Source: an uncultured Spirochaetales bacterium
GTDB taxonomy: Bacteria > Spirochaetota > Spirochaetia > SP-2023 > CAYRNA01
Reading direction: 5' to 3'
Length of the DNA stretch: 31,072 bases
NCBI GenBank assembly: GCA_964488175.1
Contig: CAZATZ010000001.1
Span: forward strand, 1-31,072
The translations under genes were made by a program, and so were the position numbers. Of this stretch, positions 2,271-30,885 are shown piece by piece. The notes beneath the pieces were generated by a model, which worked only from the letters and a program-made list of their open reading frames with translations, did no database searches and was not told the origin of the DNA. Position 1 is the stretch's first letter. Each line of letters starts with the position of its first letter.

Positions 2271-3020
2271 TTAAAGTTGATCAACATCGTAAGAGTCTAA
2301 AATTTTTGACCCGAAAAGTCGTTTCAGATCAACCCGACCCGTCACAATCAATTCGTAGTATTTACCCAACTGGAATCGTTTGGGTATCTTAATAAGAAAT
2401 TCCTTTCGTTCAAAAGGTTTCACTTTCTCATCATACTGGACTTCAACGTAATATTTAAGTGCTTGAACTCCCCCATCCGTAAAAAAATAAAAGAGAAGAC
2501 TGGCCGTCGCAGAAGAGGCTTCATAGAAGCTATCGTTAAGAAAAGAGCTTCGATAGGTATTCATATCGAGTTGCGCCCCCTTCACCTTCACCAACTGTTC
2601 CACTTTCCATTTTGGTGTTTGAGAGAGAGCGCGAATCGTATACCTAGCATAATCTACCTGATAGTAGCTATATGGGGTATCTTCGGGGACTCTAGAGACG
2701 AGAAAAAAAGGCAAAGAGTTCTTAGGAAGGACAATATCCGCTAAAGGAAAATCTTCACTAAAGAGTAAAAACTCTGGATCATAGGGATTCCCACCATTCT
2801 CTTCCGTTACATCTGCGGGAGGAGAGTAGAAGTAAATCCGAAGAACGATATCGGCGATAGCGACGTCTCCGTATGGGTTTCTTAAGTATCCAGCAAACGC
2901 CTGTGTCTCTTCATTACTCTCAACGGGTGAAACAAAGGCAACGTTTCCAGAGAGAGAAGGGAGTGAGAGAACTAAAAGAATTAAAAACAGTGAGGTTTTT
3001 CTTAAAATAAGAAATCGCAT
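2271..3020 (-). CDS. Secreted hypothetical protein, probably two tandem FxLYD-like (Ig-fold) domains
   Basis: Signal peptide MRFLILRKTSLFLILLVLSLPSLSG; two similar segments GYLRN...IVLRIYFYS...LPKNSLPF and SFLND...SLLFYFFTD...VKPFERKEF. Start set at ATG 3020 (AGAGGAG 6 nt upstream) rather than 3053. Domain call is by pattern only. Confidence 0.6.
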   Translation of the reverse strand: MRFLILRKTSLFLILLVLSLPSLSGNVAFVSPVESNEETQAFAGYLRNPYGDVAIADIVLRIYFYSPPADVTEENGGNPYDPEFLLFSEDFPLADIVLPKNSLPFFLVSRVPEDTPYSYYQVDYARYTIRALSQTPKWKVEQLVKVKGAQLDMNTYRSSFLNDSFYEASSATASLLFYFFTDGGVQALKYYVEVQYDEKVKPFERKEFLIKIPKRFQLGKYYELIVTGRVDLKRLFGSKILDSYDVDQL

Positions 3021-3091
3021 CTCCAACTCCTCTCTCGAAAGATCTATTTGCATCAGAGAGTGACACCGTATACAGAAACATTCTCTCTCTG

Positions 3092-3180
3092 GGGTACCTC
3101 TAAAAAGTTGATTTCAGAAAATAACGAAGATATTTTTTGGCAAGTCAAGGAACTGAAAAAAAGGTTTTTTAGAGGTACCC
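3092..3180. mobile_element. 89-bp MITE-like element with perfect 15-bp terminal inverted repeats
   Basis: GGGTACCTCTAAAAA (3092-3106) and TTTTTAGAGGTACCC (3166-3180); the interior is duplicated at 1-55; no ORF and no clear target-site duplication. Confidence 0.6.
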
Positions 3181-3185
3181 TTTTA

Positions 3186-3210
3186 TACAATACAATACAA
3201 TACAATACGA
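3186..3210. repeat. Pentanucleotide microsatellite (TACAA)4 TACGA
   Basis: Read directly at 3186-3210. Confidence 0.95.
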
Positions 3211-3901
3211 GAAATCACTCTTCCTTTCTAACCCTATCGATCATTTCTGCTCATAAAGGTATCAATTTTTTCGTAATCTCTCCCTGCGATGGGGAAAAGG
3301 GGAGATTTTTCTATCAAGACTCATCGCATTTTTTCAAATCACGCCATAAACGCCACAATGTATGTCAAAATATATATCAAAAATCGAGTGAGAAATAAAA
3401 AGAGGTTCTTTTCACGACTCCTCTTTTCTCTGCGAACTTTCTCTGAGTAGTTCAAACTTCTCGCCCTCTAGCTATCAAATCCTCACTCAACGTTTCGAAC
3501 TCCCTGTCAAAATTGAAACCTCTCTCACTTCTACTCAGATCTGTTTCCTGAGAAATTTTAGATAAAAGCTATCGATGACAAAGCCTCTCATCAAATAACA
3601 TCCCCTATATCTCAGAAATCGCAACATCTTAACGTAAATATCCACGTCAAAAAGAGGCGATTATCCTCCCTTTTTTTTGATAAGACAGGAAAATATACAA
3701 TTTTAATAAATTATCTCATAAATTCTTCCGTTCGCTCCAGTCATTTTCCCTATTTTAGCCACTTCTCAACACAAAAGAGAGCATTTCTGAGATCCACTCT
3801 TATCTCTCGTGCTGTTCTTTCGCATTTAAATCTTATTTTTATTTTCGATCTCAGGAAAGGACTACTTTTCGCTCAAATTCCTCTTCTTTTCTCAAATTAG
3901 A

Positions 3902-3919
3902 CTGGCATGACTTTTGCAT
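3902..3919 (+). promoter_or_regulatory. Sigma54 (RpoN) -24/-12 promoter
   Basis: CTGGCATGACTTTTGCAT versus consensus YTGGCACG-N4-TTGCW: one mismatch and exact GG/GC spacing; oriented toward the CDS at 4047. Confidence 0.7.
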
Positions 3920-3965
3920 TTTAAAACACGACACAAAAGTCAATTTAAAAGAGGAGGAGCAAGAT

Positions 3966-4025
3966 ATGGTGCAACTTCTTCTCTTTTTTAGAAGAAAAAA
4001 GGTAGAAGGCACACTGATACCTTGA
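3966..4025 (+). CDS. Putative 19-aa leader peptide (uORF) MVQLLLFFRRKKVEGTLIP
   Basis: GAGGAGGAG SD at 3951-3959, ATG 3966, TGA 4023-4025, ending 21 nt before the ATG at 4047. Confidence 0.45.
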   Translation: MVQLLLFFRRKKVEGTLIP

Positions 4026-4046
4026 AAAAAAATAAAGGAGACGATT

Positions 4047-5123
4047 ATGAAAAATGATTTTAGAGGGCTAAGAGAGGAAGTCTCTCTCTTGCATGAAAAG
4101 TACAAAAAAGATGAAACACAGTGGCCGATTCTAGAAAAAGCGATTTTCCGTTACTTGTACTTCTTTCCTGCCGCCGTTTTTCACGAAAAAGAGGAGGGAG
4201 CGGAGTTTGCCGAAGAGATATTAGACAAGGTTCATCACTGGGTCGAAATACATTCCGGCAAGGTCCCCTTTGAGCTTTATCTCTATCAAGTGGTGCGTTG
4301 GCGTTACTATGATTATACGAGAAAAAAACGAAAAAAGATTTCGCACTCTCTTGAAGAAAATTGGCATGCGATAGAATTTAATGAAGAGTCTCTTTTTCTC
4401 TCAGACAATAGTGGCTCTCTCTACCTCGAAAAGAGATCTATTCTCGATAATAACGACTGCGTCGCACTCTACTTTAAAAATCCAACAAAGAGACAGAGAG
4501 GGGGAGAGCCAATTGCTATCGAGCCAAACCACCCCATCGAAAGTATAACCGAAAAGTTGCTAGAATACCTGCTGACCTACTCGAAGCTCAACTTAAAATT
4601 GGCGAAAACACGGCTTTTCTGCTTTCTGCTCGATACATTTTCACCACTAGACAATCTATCCCAAGAGTTCATCTCGAGAGAGCTTGATCAGAAGAGAGAG
4701 GCCGTAAAACGAATTACATCCAACATATCAAAAGAGATGGAACGACGAAAGGGGATTTATGACTATTACTGCATCAGGAAGAATCGTCTCGACACTCTTT
4801 TAAGAAAAGAACACCGAGAAGCACCACCCAATAGCGAGAAAATTGAGATGCTCAACAAACGACTGACTCATCTAAACAAAAAAATAGAGAACTGTCACCT
4901 TACGGTCTCTCAAAGCTTTTTAGCACGAGAAATAGGAATTCCTAAAGGGACTCTCAACGCACATCTTAAATTTACTCAAAATTTCTTTTCAAAGTTTATC
5001 TTCTCCGAACACCGAAGCTTGCCTGAGATTGAAAGAAGAAAACAAAAAAATGCTACGCCAGAACTTAAGCGGAAATATTTTCCAGAAAAAAAATTCATCC
5101 AGCGATTCTCTGAGCATTTTTAG
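4047..5123 (+). CDS. Atypical sigma70/ECF-like factor (sigma2-like region plus sigma4-like HTHs)
   Basis: AAGGAG SD at 4035-4040. aa ~51-95 AEFAEEILDK...PFELYLYQVVRWRYYDYTRK resembles ECF region 2 (F.tWL..I.rN...D.lR). aa 288-307 SQSFLAREIGIPKGTLNAHL resembles the region 4.2 HTH. The CDS is secure; the function is inferred. Confidence 0.62.
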   Translation: MKNDFRGLREEVSLLHEKYKKDETQWPILEKAIFRYLYFFPAAVFHEKEEGAEFAEEILDKVHHWVEIHSGKVPFELYLYQVVRWRYYDYTRKKRKKISHSLEENWHAIEFNEESLFLSDNSGSLYLEKRSILDNNDCVALYFKNPTKRQRGGEPIAIEPNHPIESITEKLLEYLLTYSKLNLKLAKTRLFCFLLDTFSPLDNLSQEFISRELDQKREAVKRITSNISKEMERRKGIYDYYCIRKNRLDTLLRKEHREAPPNSEKIEMLNKRLTHLNKKIENCHLTVSQSFLAREIGIPKGTLNAHLKFTQNFFSKFIFSEHRSLPEIERRKQKNATPELKRKYFPEKKFIQRFSEHF

Positions 5124-5141: not shown

Positions 5142-5179
5142 GAACGCCTCTCTCTATATTAAAATAGAGAGAGGCGTTC
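5142..5179. terminator. Perfect 16-bp hairpin between convergent genes, probable bidirectional terminator
   Basis: GAACGCCTCTCTCTAT-ATTAAA-ATAGAGAGAGGCGTTC between stops at 5123 (+) and 5208 (-). There is no classical U-tract. Confidence 0.75.
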
Positions 5180-5207: not shown

Positions 5208-6212
5208 CTAAAAAGCAACCCCGAAGTCTAATCCTGGTTTGACAGAAACTGATATCTCCTTGGAATTAAAAATAGGATTCTGAGTCATAATCAATTTTTT
5301 AGGGTTAACGATCGCATTGTAAGGAGTCGCAGAAACGCCGATACCAATATAGGGTCGAATAAGAATTCCTTGTTTTAGAATAAAGGTATACCCCGCCTCG
5401 AGGGCTCCTCCAAATCCTAATTTACCTATATACTCAGACCCACGTTCTTGGACACTCGGTCCTTGAGACGTAGTTCGGTAAGGGGTTACATTTCCAGGGA
5501 TCGTCAGACCAAAGCTCAATCCGACAAAATAGCCACCTAGCCCATTAACTCCCTTACTAAAAACATACGCTAATCCGATATCAACCAGATAATATTCAAT
5601 ACCACGTTTAAAGCTATTAAAAATGAGCCCTGGCCTTAGAGATAACTGTATCGGCCCAAGCATACGGTCATAACCAATCTGAAAAGCAAACCGACTAATA
5701 GAGTCTGGAGCTTGATCATCAAAGCCTTCAGGAGAGATATTCATGGAAGTAAAGAGCGAAGAAAGATCGAAAAAGAAGGCGTTCTTTGACTGTCCCAACG
5801 TAACAAGATTTACATATTCGATATCACGCCCAAGGAATGTATCGTAAATAGTAATGGCTGCCTTATCATCAGCTTTAGCAGCATCTTTCTTTTTCTTGTC
5901 TTCTTCAGCTTTTTTCTTTGCCGCCGCTGCTTTAGCTTTAGCAGCAGCTTGTTGCTTCGCTCTTTGTTGCTTCGCTCTTTGTTGCCTAGCCCTCTGTTGT
6001 TGGTTCCCTCCTTTGGCATTTCCTGCTTTGGCATTTCCTGCTTTGGCATTTCCTGGCTTGGCATTTCCTCCCGCACGTCCACCACCCTGCGCAGGCTTTC
6101 CTCCAGCAGGTGCTCCCTGTGCTGATAATGTTAAGTTCCCAAAAGGAAAAAGGAGAAGCAGAGAAAGAAAGGCCAAGTATCTCACAGGATACAAGCTGAG
6201 TATATTTTTCAT
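5208..6212 (-). CDS. Outer-membrane beta-barrel protein (8-stranded OmpA/OmpW- or DUF3575-like) with repeat-rich, low-complexity N-terminal extension
   Basis: Signal peptide MKNILSLY...NLTLSA; G/A/P/K/Q-rich tract; alternating amphipathic strands (FAFQIGYDR, GYFVGLSFG, GGALEAGYTF, IRPYIGIG); terminal GLDFGVAF with C-terminal Phe. Start moved to ATG 6212 (AAGGAG upstream). Confidence 0.75.
   Translation of the reverse strand: MKNILSLYPVRYLAFLSLLLLFPFGNLTLSAQGAPAGGKPAQGGGRAGGNAKPGNAKAGNAKAGNAKGGNQQQRARQQRAKQQRAKQQAAAKAKAAAAKKKAEEDKKKKDAAKADDKAAITIYDTFLGRDIEYVNLVTLGQSKNAFFFDLSSLFTSMNISPEGFDDQAPDSISRFAFQIGYDRMLGPIQLSLRPGLIFNSFKRGIEYYLVDIGLAYVFSKGVNGLGGYFVGLSFGLTIPGNVTPYRTTSQGPSVQERGSEYIGKLGFGGALEAGYTFILKQGILIRPYIGIGVSATPYNAIVNPKKLIMTQNPIFNSKEISVSVKPGLDFGVAF
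5949..5993 (-). repeat. In-frame 15-bp tandem repeat encoding QQRAK-type units
   Basis: TTGTTGCTTCGCTCT x2 (5949-5978) plus a degenerate third copy. Confidence 0.9.
6012..6071 (-). repeat. In-frame 15-bp tandem repeat encoding GNAKA-type units
   Basis: Core TTGGCATTTCCT at 6013, 6028, 6043 and 6058 (period 15). Confidence 0.92.
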
Positions 6213-6552
6213 TTTAAAACATCTCCTTCGAGCAACAATACGCTCTTGAAATATTCTCTTTAAATTTTCACAATAATTTTTTAACCGTCGAAACCCCATT
6301 TTGAAGTCAGACAACCACTTAGTAGAGCAAATAACAATCCTCGAGATAAGGAGAGCGTTATTTATAGAAGTTCATTAATAATCGGTAATCAAATACAATT
6401 ATCGGTACGAGAAGAAGCAGACTAGAGAAAGAAAAATTCTTTCGCTAAAAGAACCGTCTCGTAAAAGGGTTGCTAAGAACACCCCCCTCCAGAGCTTCTT
6501 CGTACTCACAGGCGAATCTAAGTTTTCACCTGTTTATCGAAGTCGAAATAAT

Positions 6553-6578
6553 ACATATTCACTCGACATATTCACTCG
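6553..6578. repeat. Perfect 13-bp tandem duplication
   Basis: ACATATTCACTCG at 6553-6565 and 6566-6578. Confidence 0.9.
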
Positions 6579-6776
6579 TTATTCGAATGAAGTCACCACA
6601 CTAGTATTGTAGAAAAAATATCTTTAAAACCAACCTAACTAGCTAAAAAGACCTTCGTCCCACACTTTTATTGCCTAAACAAAAAGACTTACCAACCAGT
6701 GTTCTACTCATTCTACCATTTTTTAACTTTTTTGGGAAGGAGGTACTCTACCGTGAGAGAGACAAAACGAAAAATA

Positions 6777-6792
6777 TGCAATATTTGCACCA
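6777..6792 (-). promoter_or_regulatory. Possible second sigma54 -24/-12 element facing the beta-barrel gene
   Basis: Minus strand TGGTGCAAATATTGCA has correct GG/GC spacing and TTGCA, but TGGTGC replaces TGGCAC; about 565 bp upstream of ATG 6212. Confidence 0.35.
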
Positions 6793-7230
6793 TCTAAAAA
6801 AAATATTTCTTATGAGAGATATAATGAAGAATGACAATGCACAAAAGAAATCAAGTGACGCAATACCATGAAAAAAATAAAGAGAGAGATGAGAAAATTC
6901 GCAGTACACAGGTGAAAGGGTAAAGAAATCCCGCTATAACTTAAGAATTTAGAGGTGTGAAGACAACTTTCGTCTTCTGCATTGCCTATTTGAACAACGA
7001 GCAAAACCAGAGAGTAAAGCTTCAAGCTCTCACTATATCAAAGATATATATGGGAACGACGTATATCGGCGATACATATGAGAAAAGAATTTTATCGGAA
7101 ATTAAAAAAACGAAAAGTTCACATTGAAAAAAAAGAAATTTCTTAAATTCGCACCTTGTGGAAAATTTTCCAAAGAAAAAAACGACACAGACAACAAAAA
7201 GATTGAATCAAACTCATCAATATTAGCTCA

Positions 7231-7288
7231 AAAAAATCCCTTGAAGGTCATTCTCAGAGTGTTGCCATTTCTAAAATTTCAACACTCT
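7231..7288 (-). terminator. Probable terminator of the ribosomal protein/alpha operon
   Basis: 9-bp inverted repeat AGAGTGTTG/CAACACTCT (7256-7264, 7280-7288) about 20 nt after the rplQ stop, followed by a short hairpin and a T7 run on the minus strand. Confidence 0.55.
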
Positions 7289-7309
7289 CACAAGATTGAT
7301 AAAAAATCT

Positions 7310-7716: not shown

Positions 7717-8820
7717 CTATTCACCTTTAGATTTTTTTTGCTGTCTCTCAAGCTCTAAACGAGCTCGAATACTCTCTTTCAAGGCAGCGTAGTCGGTTAA
7801 TCCCAAGTATAAACCACGCTCTCGTAATTTATCTTTTATTTCCATCAAAGATTTTTTTCCAAAATTTTTCGTCCGTGCAATCTCTTCGTCTGTTTTCTTA
7901 ACGAGATCACCCAAGGTAAAAATACTGGCATTTTTTAAACAGTTATTGGATCTAACAGAGAGCTCTAACTCTTCAACTGGGGTAGCGAGGAGTGCCTTAA
8001 CCATCACCTCTTCTTCGTCAAATCCTTTATCGACAACCACCAATGACTCATCAAAATTGATGAAAGGATCCAGCCCCTCTTTTAAAATTTTTGCCGCTCG
8101 TCCAACTGCATCCGTTGGTGAGAGCGTTCCATCCGTCCAAACTTCGAGAATCAACTTATCGTTATCGTTACGGTTTCCAACCCTATGGTCTTCTGTCGTG
8201 TAACGAACCCTCTTAACAGGAGAAAAGAAGGCATCAAGAGGAATGACTCCCACAACGTCTATATATTTCTGATTGACTTCCGAGGGAACGTATCCCCGCC
8301 CCCAATCAATCTGAATATCAATCTCTAAATCAGCTTCAGGCATCGCAGTAAAAAGTTCCTGCTCTTTATTGGTAACAATAATGCCATTCTTCTCTAGGAG
8401 AGCACCCGTTGCAACTCCCTTCCCTTTCCAACCAACTGTAATTGTCATCTCTTCTTTATCATCTGGCAGTGCAAGAGATAATTTTTTTAAATTATTAATA
8501 ACAATGGCTGTATCTTCTACGACGTAAGGAATAGGCTCATATTCGCTGGAAATTCCTACGCTAGGACCAACAAGGTTGCCCCCTGCATCCAATACTTTTC
8601 CAGATCCTTTTTCGCTAAAAGAGGTTATCTTAATCGCTGAAACGGCGTATCCAGGAATAGAAGAGAGTAAGGCTCTGCGAAGTGAATTACCAACCGAATG
8701 CCCAAAACCTCTTTCAAAGGGAGCGGCTTCAAATTTCCCGTATTTATCATCAGATTCTAGCGTTGAAAAAACAACGTTACTAGGTCTTTTAAATCCTTTT
8801 AGCAGATTCTTTTCGGTCAT
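7717..8820 (-). CDS. rpoA: RNA polymerase alpha subunit
   Basis: [61 protein letters not shown]. Start set at ATG 8820 (AGGGAG 6 nt upstream). Confidence 0.98.
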
Positions 8821-23112: not shown

Positions 23113-26100
23113 CTAAGAAGAGAGTGGCGTATTTTCTTCAACCGAATCACTCTCTTCTTCGAGTGAAACCTCTTTATTCTCTTTTTCTCGAGAATCCTCT
23201 ACCGTCACGCCGCTATACTGCACGATTCCCGTTCCAGCTGGGATAATGTGACCGATAATGACATTCTCTTTAAGTCCTCGTAGCTGGTCAACCTTTCCAG
23301 CGATCGAGGCGTTAGTGAGAACTTTCGTTGTTTCTTGAAAAGAAGCAGCAGAGATCCACGAATCAATACTCAAAGAGGCTCTTGTTATACTCTGTAAAAG
23401 AGGTTTCGCAATTGCGGGCTGACCTCCAGCCTCCATGACTCGTCTATTTTCCTCAAAAAAATTATACTTGTCAATGACTTGCTCGTAAATAAAACTAGTA
23501 TCGCCAACTTCGAGGATCTCAACCTTTCTCATCATCTGGCGAATAATCACCCCGATGTGTTTATCGTTGACCTCAACTCCTTGCATTCGGTAGACCTCTT
23601 GAACCTCGTCCAAGAGGAATCGCTGAAGCTCGTTCTCTCCTTTAATCGTTAGGATTTGATGGGGATCCATCTGTCCGTCACAGAGAGGTTCACCGTATTC
23701 AACGTTATCACCATCTCGTGCCAGAAGGTAGCGTCCAAGAGGAACAAGGTGTTTAAAGCGATTTCCAAAAGAGTCCTCTATTTCAAGAACTCTATTTCCC
23801 TTATTTCTTCCCGCAAAGTGAACGACGCCAGAGACCTGAGCAAGAATAGCGATTACGCTAGGTCGTCTCGCTTCAAAAAGTTCAACGACTCGTGGTAGTC
23901 CTCCCGTAATATCCTGCGTCTTTGCCGTACTTTTAGGGATTCGTGCCAAAACGGCTCCAGCCTCAACCGTTGCCCCTTCTTGGACGGCAACGATCGCATT
24001 GACGGGGAGATAGTAACACTCCTCCTTCTTACCTTTACGAACCAGCAGTCTCGGCTCTAGCGTATCGGAGGTATTTGTGGTGACACGAACCTCTATCTGT
24101 CCCGTATGAGAGTTTATCTCTGAGGTAATACTACTCTCAGGAATCATGTCGGCAAAGACAACCTTTCCCTCGACCTCTGCGATAATCGGCTCACTATAGG
24201 GATCGTAGGTTGCGATCGTCTGCTCTGGTAAGATAACGGTATTTAAAGCGACCTCTAAGGCTGATCCTGTTCGCATCTCGATACGCTGCTCTTGACCGAC
24301 TAAGAGGAAACGGTTTTTTCTCTGAATTCGGATAAAACCCGCCTCTTGTGCCTTAATCTCCTCGCCCTTCGTCGTTACGTAGAGAACTTCATTTTTAGCA
24401 ACTCGATCACCATTGACTAACGAGATCTCTTCTCCCTTAGAGAGACGGAACTCGCCGATGACACGGTTGTACTTGAGGTATCCTTTTCTCGTAAAGAGAG
24501 GATTTTCACCCTTTATAATCGTCGTTCCCACAATCTCGGTAATGACGATCGGCATCTTCATAAAGAGACTATTTCCCTCGGATGACGTACTCGCCGTTCC
24601 TCCGACGTGGAAGGTTCTCATCGTTAACTGGGTTCCCGGTTGTCCAATCGATTGTGCTGCGATAATTCCTACCGCCTCTCCGATATCGACCGTTTTTCTG
24701 CTCGCTAAGTTTCGTCCGTAACACTTCTGACAGACTCCGTGTTTCGCTTCACAGGTAAAAACCGTTCTGACGGTAACACCTTCAACTCCTAGGTGCTCTA
24801 ACTCACTCGCCACCTCATCGGTAATCTCTTCGTTTAAATCTAGAACGAGTTCTTTGGTAATAGGGTGTTTAATTCGCTCGAGAGTGAAAGCACCTCGAAT
24901 TCGATCACTAAGAGACTCGACGATCTCCTCGCCGTCTTTTAAGGCGGTGATATGGATTCCGTTAATCGTTCCGCAATCATTCTCGTTAATAACAACGTCT
25001 TGAGCGATATCGGCCAATCGCCTCGTTAAATACCCCGCATCCGCGGTTTTAAGAGCCGTATCGGCCAAACCCTTTCTCGCTCCGTTCGTTGAGATAAAGA
25101 ATTCAATAACCGAGAGTCCCTCTTTAAAGTTTGAGCGGATAGGGAGTTCGATAATATCTCCCGAAGGCTTAGCCATTAATCCACGCATTCCTGCGAGTTG
25201 GCGTATCTGGTTACGAGAACCACGAGCCCCCGAATCAGCCATCATGTAGACGTTGTTAAACCCTTCCTTATCCTTCTGAAGAGATTGCATCATCGTATCG
25301 GTTAATCTCTCATTGGTGTCGGACCAGACCTCGACGATCTTGTTATGCTTCTCTTCTGAGGTAATAATTCCAGTCTCTTGTTGCTCTTTAATCTTTTGAA
25401 CCTCTTCATTCGCCGTCTGAATCAGATCTGTTTTTTCGTCAGGAATCATCATGTCATCGACACCGATGGAGCAACCAAAGGTCGTCGCATAACGAAATCC
25501 GACATTCTTCAAATTGTTTAACAACTCAACGACGACTCCCGCTCCTTTGGCGGTAAAGGTTCGATCGATTAAGTTACGAATCGCCTTTTCAGAGAGAACC
25601 TCGTTGACAAACTCGACCCCCTCATTCAAATCAAGATTTAACTTAATTCGACCGGGCGTGGTCTCAAGAACGGTGTTGTCCTCTTGGATGACTCGAACGA
25701 GAGCTTGATCGGAGACGCTCTTCGTCTCCGCCGCCATAACCGCCTCATCAAAATCGGAGAAGAGAGAGTTCTCTCCCTTCGCCCCTTTGCGAATCGATGT
25801 AAGAGAGTAGAGGCCTAAAACCATGTCCTGTGAAGGAAAGACGACCGGTTGTCCGTTCGCAGGGTTAAAAAGATTACGCGAGGACAACATCAGTGTCCAA
25901 CACTCCATCTGAGCGGCCTCTGTCAGAGGGACGTGAACCGCCATCTGGTCTCCGTCAAAGTCCGCATTGAAAGCGTGACAGACGAGGGGGTGGAGACGAA
26001 TCGCTTTTCCATCGATCAAGACCGGCTCAAACGCTTGAACACTCAACCGGTGCAGCGTCGGAGCCCTGTTAAGTAGTATGGGATGCTCCCTTACTATCAT

Positions 26101-27303
26101 CTCAAGGATTTCCCAAACTGCGGTCTCTTCATTCTCAACAATCGTCTTCGCTCGCTTAATATTGGAAGCGATCTCATTCTCAATGAGAGATCGCATAATA
26201 AATGGTTTATAGAGTTCCAACGCCATTCGAGAGGGCAGACCACACTGGTGCAACTTGAGGGAGGGGCCGACAACAACGACCGAACGTCCCGAATAATCGA
26301 CCCGTTTTCCCAAAAGGTTCTGTCGGAATCGTCCCTGTTTTCCCTTCAAAAAATCGGAGAGTGATTTTAAAGGTCGATTTGAAGATCCTTTAACGACCTT
26401 CTTTTTCTTTGAATTATCGAAGAGTGCGTCGACCGCTTCCTGCAACATCCGCTTTTCATTACGGATGATAATATCGGGGGCGTTCAATTTTTGCATGCGG
26501 AAGAGTCGGTTATTTCGGTTGATGACTCGGCGATAGAGATCGTTAAGATCGGAGGTCGCAAATCTTCCCCCGTCCAACTGAACCATCGGACGCAGATCGG
26601 GAGGAATGACGGGAATCACATCCATCACCATCCACTCGGGACGACTCGCCGATTTTCTAAAATGTTCAACAATTTCAACTCGCTTGAGCAATTTTTTATC
26701 GCTACTACGCTTCTCGATCATTCTTTGACGCAACTCAGAGGCCAGAAGATCGAGGTCTATCTGTCTTAGTAAAATTTTAATCGCCTCGGCGCCGATCTCG
26801 GCGACAAAGTTTGATTCGTATCGCTCTCTCGCCTCGACATACTCCTCTTCGGTTAAGAGATCTAGCTTCTTTAGATCGGTGCCTCCAGGCTCAACCACGA
26901 TAAACTTCTCGTAGTAGAGAACCGATCGTAGCGTTGAGACCGAGAGATCGAGCAAAAGCCCCATTCTCGAAGGAACCGAGCGGTAGAACCAGATGTGTGA
27001 GACGGGGGTCGCTAACTTGATATGCCCCATTCGTTCTCGCCGAACTTTAAAATGGGTTACCTCGACACCACAACGATCGCAGACAACGCCCTTGTACCGA
27101 ATCGACTTGAACTTTCCGCAAAAGCACTCCCACTCTTTCGTTGTTCCAAAGATTTTCTCGCAGAAGAGTCCCTCTTTTTCGGGACGCAACGTTCGGTAAT
27201 TGATCGTTTCTGGCTTATTAACCTCACCGTATGACCACTCTTTGATCTGCTCTTGTGACGCCAACTTAATCATGAGACTATCAAAATTTTTAATGTCGTT
27301 CAT
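23113..27303 (-). CDS. rpoC: RNA polymerase beta' subunit
   Basis: Zn finger CFCGK...[51 protein letters not shown]. Confidence 0.99.
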
Positions 27304-27393: not shown

Positions 27394-30300
27394 TTAAAAC
27401 TGACTCTCCTGCTTCTGTAAAATCTCGCTATCTCGTTCAGTTAACGCAAGCTGTTCTCCCTTAGCATCAAATATCTGTACATCGAGTCCTAATCCTCTCA
27501 ACTCTTGAATCAAGACGTTAAACGACTCGGGGGTTCCCGCACTCTCCATCTGCGTTCCCTTCACAATCGCCTCATAAATTTTTGAGCGACCCGTCATATC
27601 ATCCGACTTGAAGGTCATCAACTCCTGAAGTGTATTCGCCGCTCCGTACGCCTCTAACGCCCAGACCTCCATCTCTCCAAACCGCTGGCCTCCAAATTGA
27701 GCCTTTCCCCCCAAGGGTTGCTGGGTTACCAGCGAGTAAGGCCCCGTCGATCGAGCGTGCATCTTATCGTCTGCAAGGTGGTGAAGTTTCAGGTAGTACA
27801 TGTATCCGACCATGACGTTGTTCTGGAATTTCTCCCCTGTCAAGCCGTCATAGAGAGGCTGTTTCGAACTCTTATCGATTCCGGCCTCCTCCAACTCTTT
27901 TTCAATCTCAGCGATCGAAGCGGATTGGAAGACCTCTGTTTTGTATAAATGGTTTAATTTCGCCCCCGCCATACCGAGCATCGTCTCGAGTAGCTGTCCG
28001 ATATTCATTCGAGATGGAACACCAAGAGGGTTCAAGCAGACATCCAGCGGGGTTCCGTCTTCGAGAAAAGGCATATCCTCTTCGGGGAGAATCTTAGCGA
28101 TAACACCCTTGTTACCGTGACGCCCCGCCATCTTATCTCCCTCTTTCAGTTTTCGCTTGGAGGCGACATAGACCTTAATCTCCTCCTCGACGCCGGGGCT
28201 TAATTCGGTCGAACCACCACCCCTCTGTAACCGTTGAATATCGATAACCGTTCCTTCAATTCCGTGGGGAACTCGTAGAGAGGAGTCTCTGACATCCTTA
28301 ACCTTGGCACCGAAGATAGAGTTCAAGAGTTTAAACTCGGGAGTCGTCTCTGTTTCAGAACGAGGAGTTGTTTTTCCTACTAAGATGGTTCCCGAAGAGA
28401 CCTTGGCTCCTACACAGATGATTCCATCCTCGTCGAGATTCTCAAGCTCTTTTTCTCCGACATTGGGAACGTCGCGGGTTATTTTTTCGACTCCCAGCTT
28501 CGTATCACGTGCCTCTAAAACAAACTCTTTAATGTGAATCGAGGTGTAATAGTCGTCGCGTACGACTCTCTCTGAGATAAGAACTGCGTCCTCAAAGTTA
28601 TACCCGTTCCAAGGAACGAATCCAACAAGAAGATTTTTTCCTAACGCAAGCTCTCCCCCCTGTGTCGAAGGGCCGTCGGCGATCACATCCCCTTTAGAGA
28701 CCGTATCTGAGACACGAACAACGGGAACTTGATTGAAGCAGGTGTCTTGGTTTGTCCGCTGATACTTGACCAGAGGAGCGATATGCGTCTCTCCCGACTC
28801 GTCGAGAATCTCGACACAATCGGAGGTAACCGAGCTAACAGAACCAGAGACGGGTGCCTTCGCCACAACTCCCGTATCGTACGCAACTCTCGTCTCAAGC
28901 CCCGTTCCTACAATGGGAGCCTGTGGAAAGAGGAGAGGAACCGCTTGTCGCTGCATATTACACCCCATGAGCGCTCGGTTGGCGTCATCGTGTTCCAAGA
29001 AGGGAATGAGTGAGGTTGCGGTTGAAATAAGCTGTCGAGGAGAGACGTCCATGTAGTCGATCTGATCGACCTCTATGGCGAAGTAGTCACCAGATCGCCG
29101 TACCGCTACCGTATCGTTAATGAAATTCCCATTCTCATCGATAGGAGCACTCGCTTGTGCGATCGTGTACTTGTCTTCCTCTAACGCAGAAAGATAGTCG
29201 ATTTGATCGGTAACACCCTTTCCTTCAACTCGCCGATACGGCGTCTCTAAGAAGCCAAATTCATTAATTTTTGCGTAGTTAGAAAGAGAGACAATTAGAC
29301 CGATATTCGGCCCCTCGGGAGTCTCAATCGGACACATCCGACCGTAGTGAGAGTAGTGAACGTCTCGGACTTCAAATCCCGCTCTATCACGGGAAAGCCC
29401 TCCGATTCCCAGCGCACTTAGACGCCTCTTGTGCGTTAATTCGGCGAGAGGGTTGATCTGATCCATAAACTGCGACAGCTGACTCGAGCCAAAAAACTCT
29501 TTGACCGAAGCGATGATAGGCTTAATCGAGAGTAGGTCTTGAGGTTTCAGATCCTCGCTCTCTTTCATCGTCATTCTATCTCTAGCGATTCTATCCAACC
29601 GAGCGAAGGCGGTCTTTAGCTGGTTCTGTAGGAGTTCACCCACAGACCGAATACGACGATTCCCTAGGTGATCGATATCGTCGACTTTTGCGTCGCCCGT
29701 ATAGACTCGCAAGAAGTAACGAAGCGTTGCCACGATATCTTCTACGTCGAGAACACGACTCTCCTTCGTCTCGTCGAAGCCCATCTTTAGGTTCATTTTA
29801 TAACGTCCGACAGCCCCCAGATCGTACCGATTGGAACCGAAAAACATATTCTTCAGATCTTCAGTCGCCTGCTCAGGACTTACCGTCTCTCCAGGAGAGA
29901 TCGTCGCACGGACTAGAATAACCGCCTCTTCTTGACTCGGTTCATCCTGCTCAACGTTATCTCTATTGTAGGTGCTGACCTCTCGATCAAAGCAGTTAAT
30001 CAGAGCGTCTGAGCGGAGAGAATCTTCAGCTTTAAAATTAATCAAAGAGATTTTCTCAACACCAGCTCGGTGCAACTCATCAAAGTGGTGGAGATGAACT
30101 CTCTCGCCAGCTTGATACAACTTCGTCTGTTTTCCGTCGATCTCAACAAAAACGGTCTTGGCGTAGACACCACCGATCCACTTCTGATTGACAGTATCAT
30201 TTTTAGAGACAGAGACAGTCCGCATCTTGTAGAACGTCTCAATAATTTTTTCACGAGTCTCTAATCCCAGAGCTCGTAGAAAGAGAGTGGCAAGCACCTT

Positions 30301-30885
30301 CTTCTTTCGATCAATTTTAACGTACGCAATGCTCTTCTTTTGATCGATTTCAAACTCAAGCCAAGAGCCTCGATAAGGAATAATCCGTGAATAGAGCCTT
30401 CCCCTCTCAGAGGCAAAAATAACTCCTGGAGAGCGGTGAATCTGCGAGACAACAACTCTCTCTGCCCCATTGATGATAAAGGTTCCTCGATCCGTCATCA
30501 TGGGAAGATCACCCATATACACGTTTCGGTGACGAATCTCACCCGTCTCGTGAAAGACCAAGTTAAAATCCGCTTTAAGAGGAACGCAGAAAGTAGTACC
30601 TGCCCGTTTACACTGAGCCTCATTCATTCGAATCGAATCAAAATCAAGGGCGTACCCCCCATACTCTAGGGACAGCGCCTTGGCTGCGTTCTCAACGGGG
30701 AAGGTGTTTTGAAAAACCTCTTCTAATCCTTGTCGCAACAAGGGTTCCCCTTTTCTAAGCTTCTCAAATTGCAAAAACCGCTCGTAAGACTCAAACTGTG
30801 CTTGAATAAGATTTGGAATCGTCAAGACCTCTTTAAATTCTTTTCCGATCTTAACTCGTTTATTCAACCGATTCTCTGTTTCCAC
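27394..30885 (-). CDS. rpoB: RNA polymerase beta subunit
   Basis: [62 protein letters not shown] start. Confidence 0.99.

Follow-up and report, generated by a model that had tools for sequence, protein, structure and literature searches.

The gene P0001 (nucleotides (nt) 4047-5123, plus strand) lies on a 31,072-nt stretch of DNA from an uncultured Spirochaetales bacterium (contig CAZATZ010000001.1, positions 1 to 31,072; this whole stretch is called the window below), and most likely represents a tiny, fast-evolving, spirochaete-restricted lineage of the sigma-70 family with a large module between its domains and a conserved sigma-54 promoter. The explanation that is somewhat favoured for the gene as a whole is that it encodes a divergent alternative sigma factor of the sigma-70 superfamily, nearest to the extracytoplasmic function (ECF, group 4) sigma factors, which would operate within a sigma-54 cascade; the sigma-like ancestry is more secure than this joint explanation, and the dependence on sigma-54 is less so. 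An earlier note on this DNA had described a sigma-like protein of 358 amino acids (aa) with two similar helix-turn-helix (HTH) motifs, read as a duplicated sigma-4 domain split by a coiled coil. The open reading frame (ORF) is exactly as claimed there according to the ORF list, unbroken across its 358 codons, and the two quoted peptides are indeed found at aa 204-220 (nt 4656-4706) and aa 287-303 (nt 4905-4955). A Shine-Dalgarno sequence, AAGGAG (nt 4035-4040, plus strand), can be read directly 6 nt 5' of the ATG. The annotation of the coding sequence as a divergent sigma-70-family (ECF-like) protein is based on the ORF list, its homologues and the model TIGR02937.

The ORF is a real, conserved gene that belongs to a very small family: searches of about 15 billion proteins yielded four members, all in spirochaete metagenome-assembled genomes (MAGs). 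An exhaustive phmmer search of 1.84 billion cluster representatives, with the single sequence P0001 and not a profile as the query, recovered two relatives of 291 aa each, P0002 at E 1.7e-10 and P0003 at E 2e-4, and a search seeded with P0003 added P0005 (292 aa, 58% identity to P0003). P0002, P0003 and P0005 align end to end with P0001 at 23-26% identity (MAFFT alignment A4), and the public records of all three leave the proteins unnamed. P0004 (1534 aa), which also matched at E 2e-4, is not counted as a relative because its match is a low-complexity repeat artefact. A word-indexed search of 5.8 billion proteins with a three-sequence profile returned already-known members only; two metagenome scans, with P0001 and with P0003 plus P0005 as queries, gave no relatives; and tblastn against phage and plasmid collections gave no match, hence no sign of mobile-element origin. 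Family hidden Markov models detected no member among all ORFs of 80 rplQ loci of GTDB representatives (about 25 of them spirochaetes), and no genuine ECF sigma factors were found among the fetched rplQ loci. The ORFs convergent on rplQ in L014, L015, L018, L037 and L069 were rejected as relatives, as they encode unrelated proteins.

The genomes of the homologues span 38-60% guanine plus cytosine (GC). The P0002 gene (locus L001) is in a syntenic position, convergent on rplQ-rpoA and alone between groES and rplQ, compared to which the window holds one additional intervening gene, that of an outer-membrane-like protein. Ribosomal protein L17 and RpoA of the window have 67-68% identity to those of the P0002 genome, and because P0001 and P0002 share only about 25%, the family gene must be evolving very fast. 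The contigs of P0003 and P0005 (L082 and L083) are GC-rich (56-60%) and look Treponema-like, to judge from a neighbour gene that matches the Pfam family TP_0437; in L082 the sigma-like gene is followed downstream by a Ham1-family NTPase gene, and in L083 the following gene aligns over its first 25 codons with the N-terminus of the L082 Ham1-family protein.

The N-terminus of P0001 is supported as sigma-2-like by sequence models and structure prediction, which place the domain at aa ~25-98 (nt 4119-4340, plus strand; TIGR02937, AlphaFold and Foldseek). TIGR02937, the NCBIfam model of the sigma70-ECF superfamily, matches full-length P0001 with E 2.9e-4 and the N-terminus alone with E 7.6e-4 (aa 36-106 on profile positions 13-83, 19.1 bits), which bears out the region-2-like segment claimed by the earlier note. 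The same model aligns with aa 26-287 of P0002 (profile positions 4-163 of 165, E 1.2e-7) and aa 22-282 of P0005 (profile positions 3-159, E 2.2e-8), thereby spanning both proteins from an N-terminal sigma-2 to a C-terminal sigma-4.2 by jumping a large insertion. The sigma-2-like segments of P0001 are AEF.EE (aa 52-57), G.VPFELYLYQ (aa 71-81) and RWRYYDYTR (aa 84-92). The reference sigma factors were E. coli RpoE (100% identical to PDB 1OR7_A) and AlgU, taken from a PDB alignment; hhalign places aa 50-82 on RpoE 45-77, in the expected register and weakly (P 0.13), and by eye AEFAEEIL...GKVPFELYLYQVVRWRYYDYTRKKR parallels the ECF pattern AED.vQE.f...G.s.F..WLyrIa.N...D..R. The ECF-typical sigma-2 positions F75, Y78 and W85-R86 are kept across the family, and the D..R motif of P0001 can be read directly as D89 and R92.

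AlphaFold run without an alignment gave a mean predicted local distance difference test score (pLDDT) of 48, with a helical hairpin as its sole informative part; run with the four-sequence family alignment, it modelled aa 1-98 at pLDDT 72-90 and the remainder below 50. The best compact matches of Foldseek in the PDB, none of them significant by E-value, are isolated sigma-2 domains, namely those of SigC (2o7g_B, template modelling (TM) score 0.62, 4.7 Å over 89 columns), sigma-E (4lup_C, TM 0.60) and 5or5 (TM 0.62), and sigma chains account for a large share of the top 50.

At the other end of the protein, a sigma-4-like domain (aa ~262-317, nt 4830-4997, plus strand) contains a sigma-4.2 HTH, TVSQSFLAREIGIPKGTLNAHLKFTQNFFSK, at aa 286-316. 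With hhalign, the family profile aligns this HTH to residues 153-183 of RpoE and AlgU (P 1.2e-4 for the whole profile, 9.7e-6 for its C-terminal part). In the homologues, over 20 NCBIfam models of sigma factors match the C-terminal segment, as does Sigma70_r4_2 (E 6e-4), and one member matches a PHROG sigma-factor family; all of the C-terminal sigma-4 matches are below gathering scores, and the 4.2 part alone is clearly detected. The second of the two motifs quoted in the earlier note falls inside TVSQSFLAREIGIPKGTLNAHLKFTQNFFSK, and profile comparison identifies it as the sigma-4.2 HTH.

A -24/-12 element of the sigma-54 type, GGCATGACTTTTGCA (nt 3904-3918, plus strand; TGGCATG-N4-TTGCAT in context), lies upstream of the P0001 gene and would direct transcription from a start near nt 3930. 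On the coding strand, the element of the window is cTGGCATGACTTTTGCAt (3904-3918), its end 128 nt before the ATG; that of L082 is CGGCATGATTCTTGCA (259-273, with the start codon at 309 or 321); and that of L083 is CGGCACAGTTTTTGCA (8361-8375, with the ATG at 8413). The L082 and L083 elements are 38-48 nt before the start codon, and the distance across the three loci is 38-143 nt. When both strands were scanned, the pattern GGCAY-N5-TTGCW matched once in each sequence, compared to shuffle expectations of 0.08 for the 31-kb window, 0.03 for L082 and 0.06 for L083, from which the probability that chance alone puts a match into the upstream 200 nt of the right strand is approximately 3e-4 to 7e-4 per locus. 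The element is thus present in three of the four family loci, each time directly upstream of the sigma-like gene. The window and the Treponema-like loci have only about 25% protein identity and are 12-16 percentage points apart in GC, and the retention of the element despite this distance argues for function. A scan for sigma-70-type promoters around the P0001 gene gave background levels. Transcription of the P0001 gene is predicted from these motifs to depend on sigma-54.

Upstream of the element, L082 and L083 share an array of three GTCAA repeats with exact 10-bp spacing (L082 193-217, L083 8295-8319), to which L083 adds a fourth copy at 8281; in both loci the last GTCAA is exactly 46 nt before the GG at -24. 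The array is likely a candidate regulator-binding site of the sigma-54 promoter; no equivalent of it was identified in the window. These upstream motifs were found by pattern, the MAFFT alignment of the L082 and L083 upstream regions being poor. In the window, a second copy of the -12-region sequence, without the GG at -24, is found 94 nt upstream (CTTTCGCATTTAAA at 3817-3830 versus CTTTTGCATTTTAA at 3911-3924), and an 8-bp inverted pair (CTGAGATC at 3787-3794, GATCTCAG at 3847-3854) also precedes the promoter. The predicted 5' leader of about 117 nt (nt 3930-4046, plus strand), with a boundary placed according to the promoter, has a folding energy of -28.6 kcal/mol (z = -4.1 versus shuffles) and pairs the Shine-Dalgarno sequence in its minimum free energy structure, a hint of translational control.

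Several results weigh against a sigma factor in a sigma-54 cascade. The TIGR02937 scores of the family range from 20.5 bits (P0001) to 33.9 bits (the best member), compared to a curated cut-off of 42.9, and in P0001 the model misses the C-terminal HTH, for which the support comes from the family profile and the homologues. The Pfam check proposed in the earlier note was divided: with E up to 10 allowed, Sigma70_r2 was detected in no member, and Sigma70_r4_2 matched the homologues as described above, with 19.8 bits against a cut-off of 25.7. P0001 itself had no Pfam match at E up to 10 and no phmmer match to PDB sequences. Two thirds of the AlphaFold model are at pLDDT below 50, and the Foldseek E-values, between 1 and 5, are not significant. 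The spacer between the two domains greatly exceeds known ECF linkers in length and contains no recognizable sigma-3, and with just four members the conservation statistics are thin. As for the promoter, the L001 locus has no -24/-12 element, even at 2 mismatches; its upstream region holds TTTGCAT with no GG at -24, so the element is not universal in the family, and the L001 lineage may have switched its type of promoter. No rpoN or enhancer-binding-protein gene is present in the 31 kb at hand from this genome. The region upstream of the L001 gene (9682-10000) is extremely AT-rich and contains two 39-nt imperfect direct repeats.

The spacer (aa 99-261) is about 165 aa long in P0001 and about 130 aa in the homologues, and consists of two unlike parts. 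The variable segment (aa 99-162, nt 4341-4532, plus strand) is mostly absent from the 291-292 aa homologues, corresponds to gap-rich columns in A4, has pLDDT 24-38 in both AlphaFold models and is probably disordered; the family-specific middle region (aa 163-261, nt 4533-4829, plus strand) is predicted by AlphaFold to be helical and holds the first motif. The proposal of the earlier note that this motif makes P0001 a sigma factor with two sigma-4-type HTHs (aa ~186-232 and aa 286-316), separated by a coiled coil that serves as a regulatory or dimerisation module, draws on a TIGR02937 alignment of aa 37-232 with profile positions 14-162, which lays the first motif on sigma-4; on an hhalign match of aa 200-221 to RpoE 150-171, in the expected register; and on the middle of P0003 and P0005 (QQRLLILCLKYP...CPQIARLTDTPLEIISHSLTNIRNTL), which by eye resembles the sigma-4 pattern. 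The gain from including the first motif, however, is approximately 2 bits of TIGR02937 score (21.1 with it versus 19.1 without), the hhalign match has P 0.55-0.57, and the same ECF model, when it matches P0002 and P0005, assigns sigma-4 to the C-terminal HTH. For the middle regions of P0003 and P0005 by themselves, a scan of the NCBIfam models gave no match at E up to 1; the middle-region profile finds only designed repeat proteins and the splicing factor SF1 in the PDB, with no sigma factor or HTH; and it does not align with the C-terminal profile (P 0.48). Nor are the two motifs similar, as had been claimed: 5 of their 17 positions are identical and their ungapped BLOSUM62 score is 27, a value that seven other 17-mer pairs in P0001 equal or exceed and that is reached in 65% of shuffles. 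The sigma-4-like readings of P0001 and P0003 fall on different helices in A4, and the first motif was paired with different P0003/P0005 helices in two MAFFT runs (A4 and A7); because this placement is unstable, the sigma-4-like pattern that can be seen by eye in each middle region is not a conserved, homologous one. The conclusion is that P0001 has one sigma-4, not two, and a duplicated sigma-4 is quite improbable.

The stretch between the motifs is basic and helical as described (aa 203-262 has 15 K/R versus 10 D/E and is predicted to be helical), and long helices with a marginal heptad signal do follow the first motif. Only at aa 262-291 does a crude heptad score rise above the 95th percentile of shuffles, and the helical hairpin that AlphaFold predicts at pLDDT 85-90 without an alignment drops to 43-52 with one; a coiled coil is plausible and weakly supported, and a built-in regulatory or dimerisation insert is possible. 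The idea of an undescribed sigma architecture holds insofar as the protein is sigma-like, non-canonical and below all curated family cut-offs, and fails insofar as it invoked the duplication. The basic C-terminal tail (aa 318-358, nt 4998-5120, plus strand; 41 aa with 11 K/R and 6 D/E) is limited to P0001, being missing from P0002, P0003 and P0005 in A4.

Several conserved middle-region helices come straight after the variable linker, which could fit a degenerate group-3 sigma factor with the order sigma-2/3/4, in which aa 163-261 would be a diverged sigma-3 plus a linker like region 3.2 and the first motif would approximate the HTH-like helices of region 3.1. A middle region of this kind is close to the sigma-3 and region 3.2 of group-3 sigma factors of the FliA and SigF types, and the RpoS of Borrelia, a sigma-54-dependent sigma factor of a spirochaete, has just this sigma-2/3/4 layout. 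Such an origin is rather doubtful nonetheless: Sigma70_r3 matched no member at E up to 10, no sigma-3 segment was among the PDB matches of the profile, the models that do match are of the ECF type, and hhalign found nothing against E. coli FliA (P 0.2-0.6, with an unverified FliA sequence as the query). With no sigma-3 detected in these comparisons, P0001 is not demonstrably a group-3 sigma factor. It is also conceivable that the family derives from sigma factors and has ceased to be one, functioning as a DNA-binding regulator by its C-terminal HTH only or titrating a partner as a sigma mimic, in the manner of the sigma-like domain of PhyR. PhyR is an example of a sigma-like fold put to a use other than that of a sigma factor, and the extreme divergence of the family compared to L17 and RpoA, the scores under the family cut-offs and the large uncharacterized spacer would all suit this explanation. 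It is unlikely, given that all four members have both sigma ends in the right order, that the sigma-2 positions typical of ECF sigma factors are kept (with D89 and R92 in P0001 besides) and that Pfam detects no fused receiver or other signalling domain. That the ORF is spurious, or a pseudogene decaying in a stretch with few genes and a high AT content, might be suspected from the two ORF-free gaps of about 1 kb alongside it, from the GC minimum of the window and from the word-indexed search with P0001 as the query, which returned P0001 alone out of 5.8 billion proteins; the full-length homologues in three genomes of very different GC and the intact 358-codon frame, preceded by a ribosome-binding site and a conserved promoter motif and followed by a terminator hairpin, effectively refute it.

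In the favoured explanation, that of an ECF-like sigma factor in a sigma-54 cascade, an enhancer-binding protein and sigma-54 RNA polymerase would fire the -24/-12 promoter at 3904-3918 to produce an mRNA with the structured leader of about 117 nt, which may gate translation. [quoted passage not shown] The spacer (about 165 aa), with its variable part (aa 99-162) and its conserved helical part (aa 163-261), would stand in place of sigma-3 and region 3.2 or of the short ECF linker and bridge the two domains across the enzyme. The regulated quantity would mainly be the amount of sigma factor synthesized, not its sequestration by an anti-sigma factor. The missing anti-sigma gene is thus more simply accounted for by transcriptional control from the sigma-54 promoter than by a built-in insert. 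The neighbouring gene for an outer-membrane-like protein is an obvious candidate for a target. A bolder and distinctly tentative version is that the family constitutes an undescribed class of the sigma-70 family in non-Borrelia spirochaetes, with P0001 as its founding member and with sigma-2 and sigma-4 joined by a large helical module, and is the output, long looked for, of the Hpk2/Rrp2-RpoN pathway that is conserved among free-living and Treponema-like spirochaetes. The module could in that case conceal a second sigma-4/HTH, or form a coiled coil for dimerisation, and alter the seating of the sigma factor on RNA polymerase or its reading of promoters, and a cascade from sigma-54 to an alternative sigma factor would be ancestral to spirochaetes and not a speciality of Borrelia.

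The window DNA is that of a spirochaete; among GTDB representatives, Oceanispirochaeta and Spirochaetaceae MAGs have the L17 proteins closest to its own, at no more than 72-73% identity. The minus strand of the window bears rpoB-rpoC (RpoB at 27394-30885, RpoC at 23113-27303) and a ribosomal-protein/secY/rpoA/rplQ cluster, and Rfam and tRNA scans of the window gave no match. No anti-sigma-like gene adjoins the P0001 gene, as the earlier note had observed: the neighbours at 2271-3053 and 5208-6314, both on the minus strand, have no family matches, and no neighbour in the window is co-oriented with the P0001 gene. The gene at 2271-3053, divergent from the P0001 gene across a 1-kb gap, encodes a protein of 260 aa that has a hydrophobic N-terminal segment and a cytoplasmic N-terminus of about 15 aa, which could not accommodate an anti-sigma domain. 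The gene at 5208-6314, convergent with the P0001 gene and missing from the syntenic locus L001, encodes a 368-aa protein with a signal-peptide-like N-terminus, a low-complexity region rich in Lys, Ala, Gln and Gly (NAKAGNAKAGNAK..., QQRAKQQRAK...), a beta-rich C-terminal half and a terminal Phe; it looks like an outer-membrane barrel and has no Pfam match and no meaningful NCBIfam match. Between the two convergent genes is a perfect 16-bp hairpin with a 6-nt loop (nt 5142-5179; -32.6 kcal/mol, z = -6.5, none of 200 shuffles equally stable), which has no U-tract on either strand and is probably a bidirectional terminator common to both genes. The gaps without a credible ORF on both sides of this gene pair (3054-4046 and 6315-7309), about 1 kb each, are unusually long for a bacterial genome, and the GC minimum of the window, 0.355 at 3001-4000, is near the P0001 gene. 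Directly upstream of the minus-strand gene at 2271-3053 is a perfect 15-nt inverted repeat (GGGTACCTCTAAAAA at 3092-3106, TTTTTAGAGGTACCC at 3166-3180, arms 59 nt apart), followed by an (ATACA)4 microsatellite at 3185-3204.

Sigma factors set global transcription programmes, and the P0001 family is invisible to current annotation: because P0001 has no Pfam match and the family scores fall below the NCBIfam cut-offs, standard annotation of such spirochaete genomes would miss a sigma gene. Among known systems, the ECF sigma factors of group 4, represented by E. coli RpoE (sigma-E, PDB 1OR7) and the model TIGR02937, have the same order of sigma-2 followed by sigma-4. AEF.EE lines up with AED.vQE, as G..PFELYLYQvvRWRyyDytR does with G.saFytWLyrIavNtakNyl; RpoE 153-183 is the counterpart of the sigma-4.2 HTH, and neither sigma-1.1 nor sigma-3 is detectable in P0001. 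Unlike ECF sigma factors, which have a short linker and a total of about 170-200 aa, P0001 has a spacer of about 165 aa and a total of 358 aa, and its homologues have 291-292 aa; it is below the curated cut-offs, with Sigma70_r2 silent; and a sigma-54 promoter takes the place of a co-transcribed anti-sigma gene and of an autoregulated ECF-type promoter, of which there is no sign. P0001 would therefore be filed outside the ECF sigma factors on account of the cut-offs, of Sigma70_r2 and of the layout, and is nonetheless predicted to work like one of them. The spacer bears on sigma architecture more generally, as the linkers of ECF sigma factors are short and group-3 sigma factors have a recognizable sigma-3 in this position.

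There are precedents both for sigma factors that evade the standard models and for those that dispense with an anti-sigma gene. ECF-like sigma factors that escape Pfam, such as the SigI type, ComX and others, are placed outside the ECF classification (Casas-Pastor et al. 2021, PMC7826278); these likewise belong to the sigma-70 family, have a sigma-2 or sigma-4 below the Pfam models and are missed by standard classification. The matches of the P0001 family to SigI models are weak (E 0.01-0.02), and in contrast to SigI the family has a sigma-4.2-like HTH instead of a C-terminal domain of the SigI-C type and has no RsgI-type anti-sigma neighbour. ECF41, ECF42, ECF238 and others are regulated by fused extensions (PMC8999054, PMC3426412), and like P0001 with its basic tail of 41 aa, they have additional polypeptide and no anti-sigma factor; the tail of P0001, however, is not conserved in the family, and no SnoaL, TPR or Cys-rich domain was detected.

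The closest precedent for the predicted regulation is in Borrelia burgdorferi, where sigma-54 directly transcribes rpoS in the Rrp2-RpoN-RpoS cascade (PMC3037356, PMC2940757). P0001 is not an orthologue of Borrelia RpoS, having no detectable sigma-3 and matches of the ECF type, and being missed by the RpoS-family models; the dependence on sigma-54 is here proposed on sequence grounds, with one of the four loci lacking the element. In both systems, though, the gene of an alternative sigma factor of a spirochaete stands behind a -24/-12 promoter with no anti-sigma gene, and just as BosR binds direct repeats at Borrelia rpoS, the L082 and L083 loci carry phased direct repeats upstream of the promoter. 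In Treponema denticola, Rrp2 is a predicted sigma-54 enhancer-binding protein that has been termed "unstudied" (PMC12070737). If the sigma-54 promoter of the P0001 family is functional, it provides the RpoN and enhancer-binding-protein systems of non-Borrelia spirochaetes with a concrete target, and the wiring of one sigma factor under another, as in Borrelia, recurs in the phylum with a non-orthologous downstream sigma factor.

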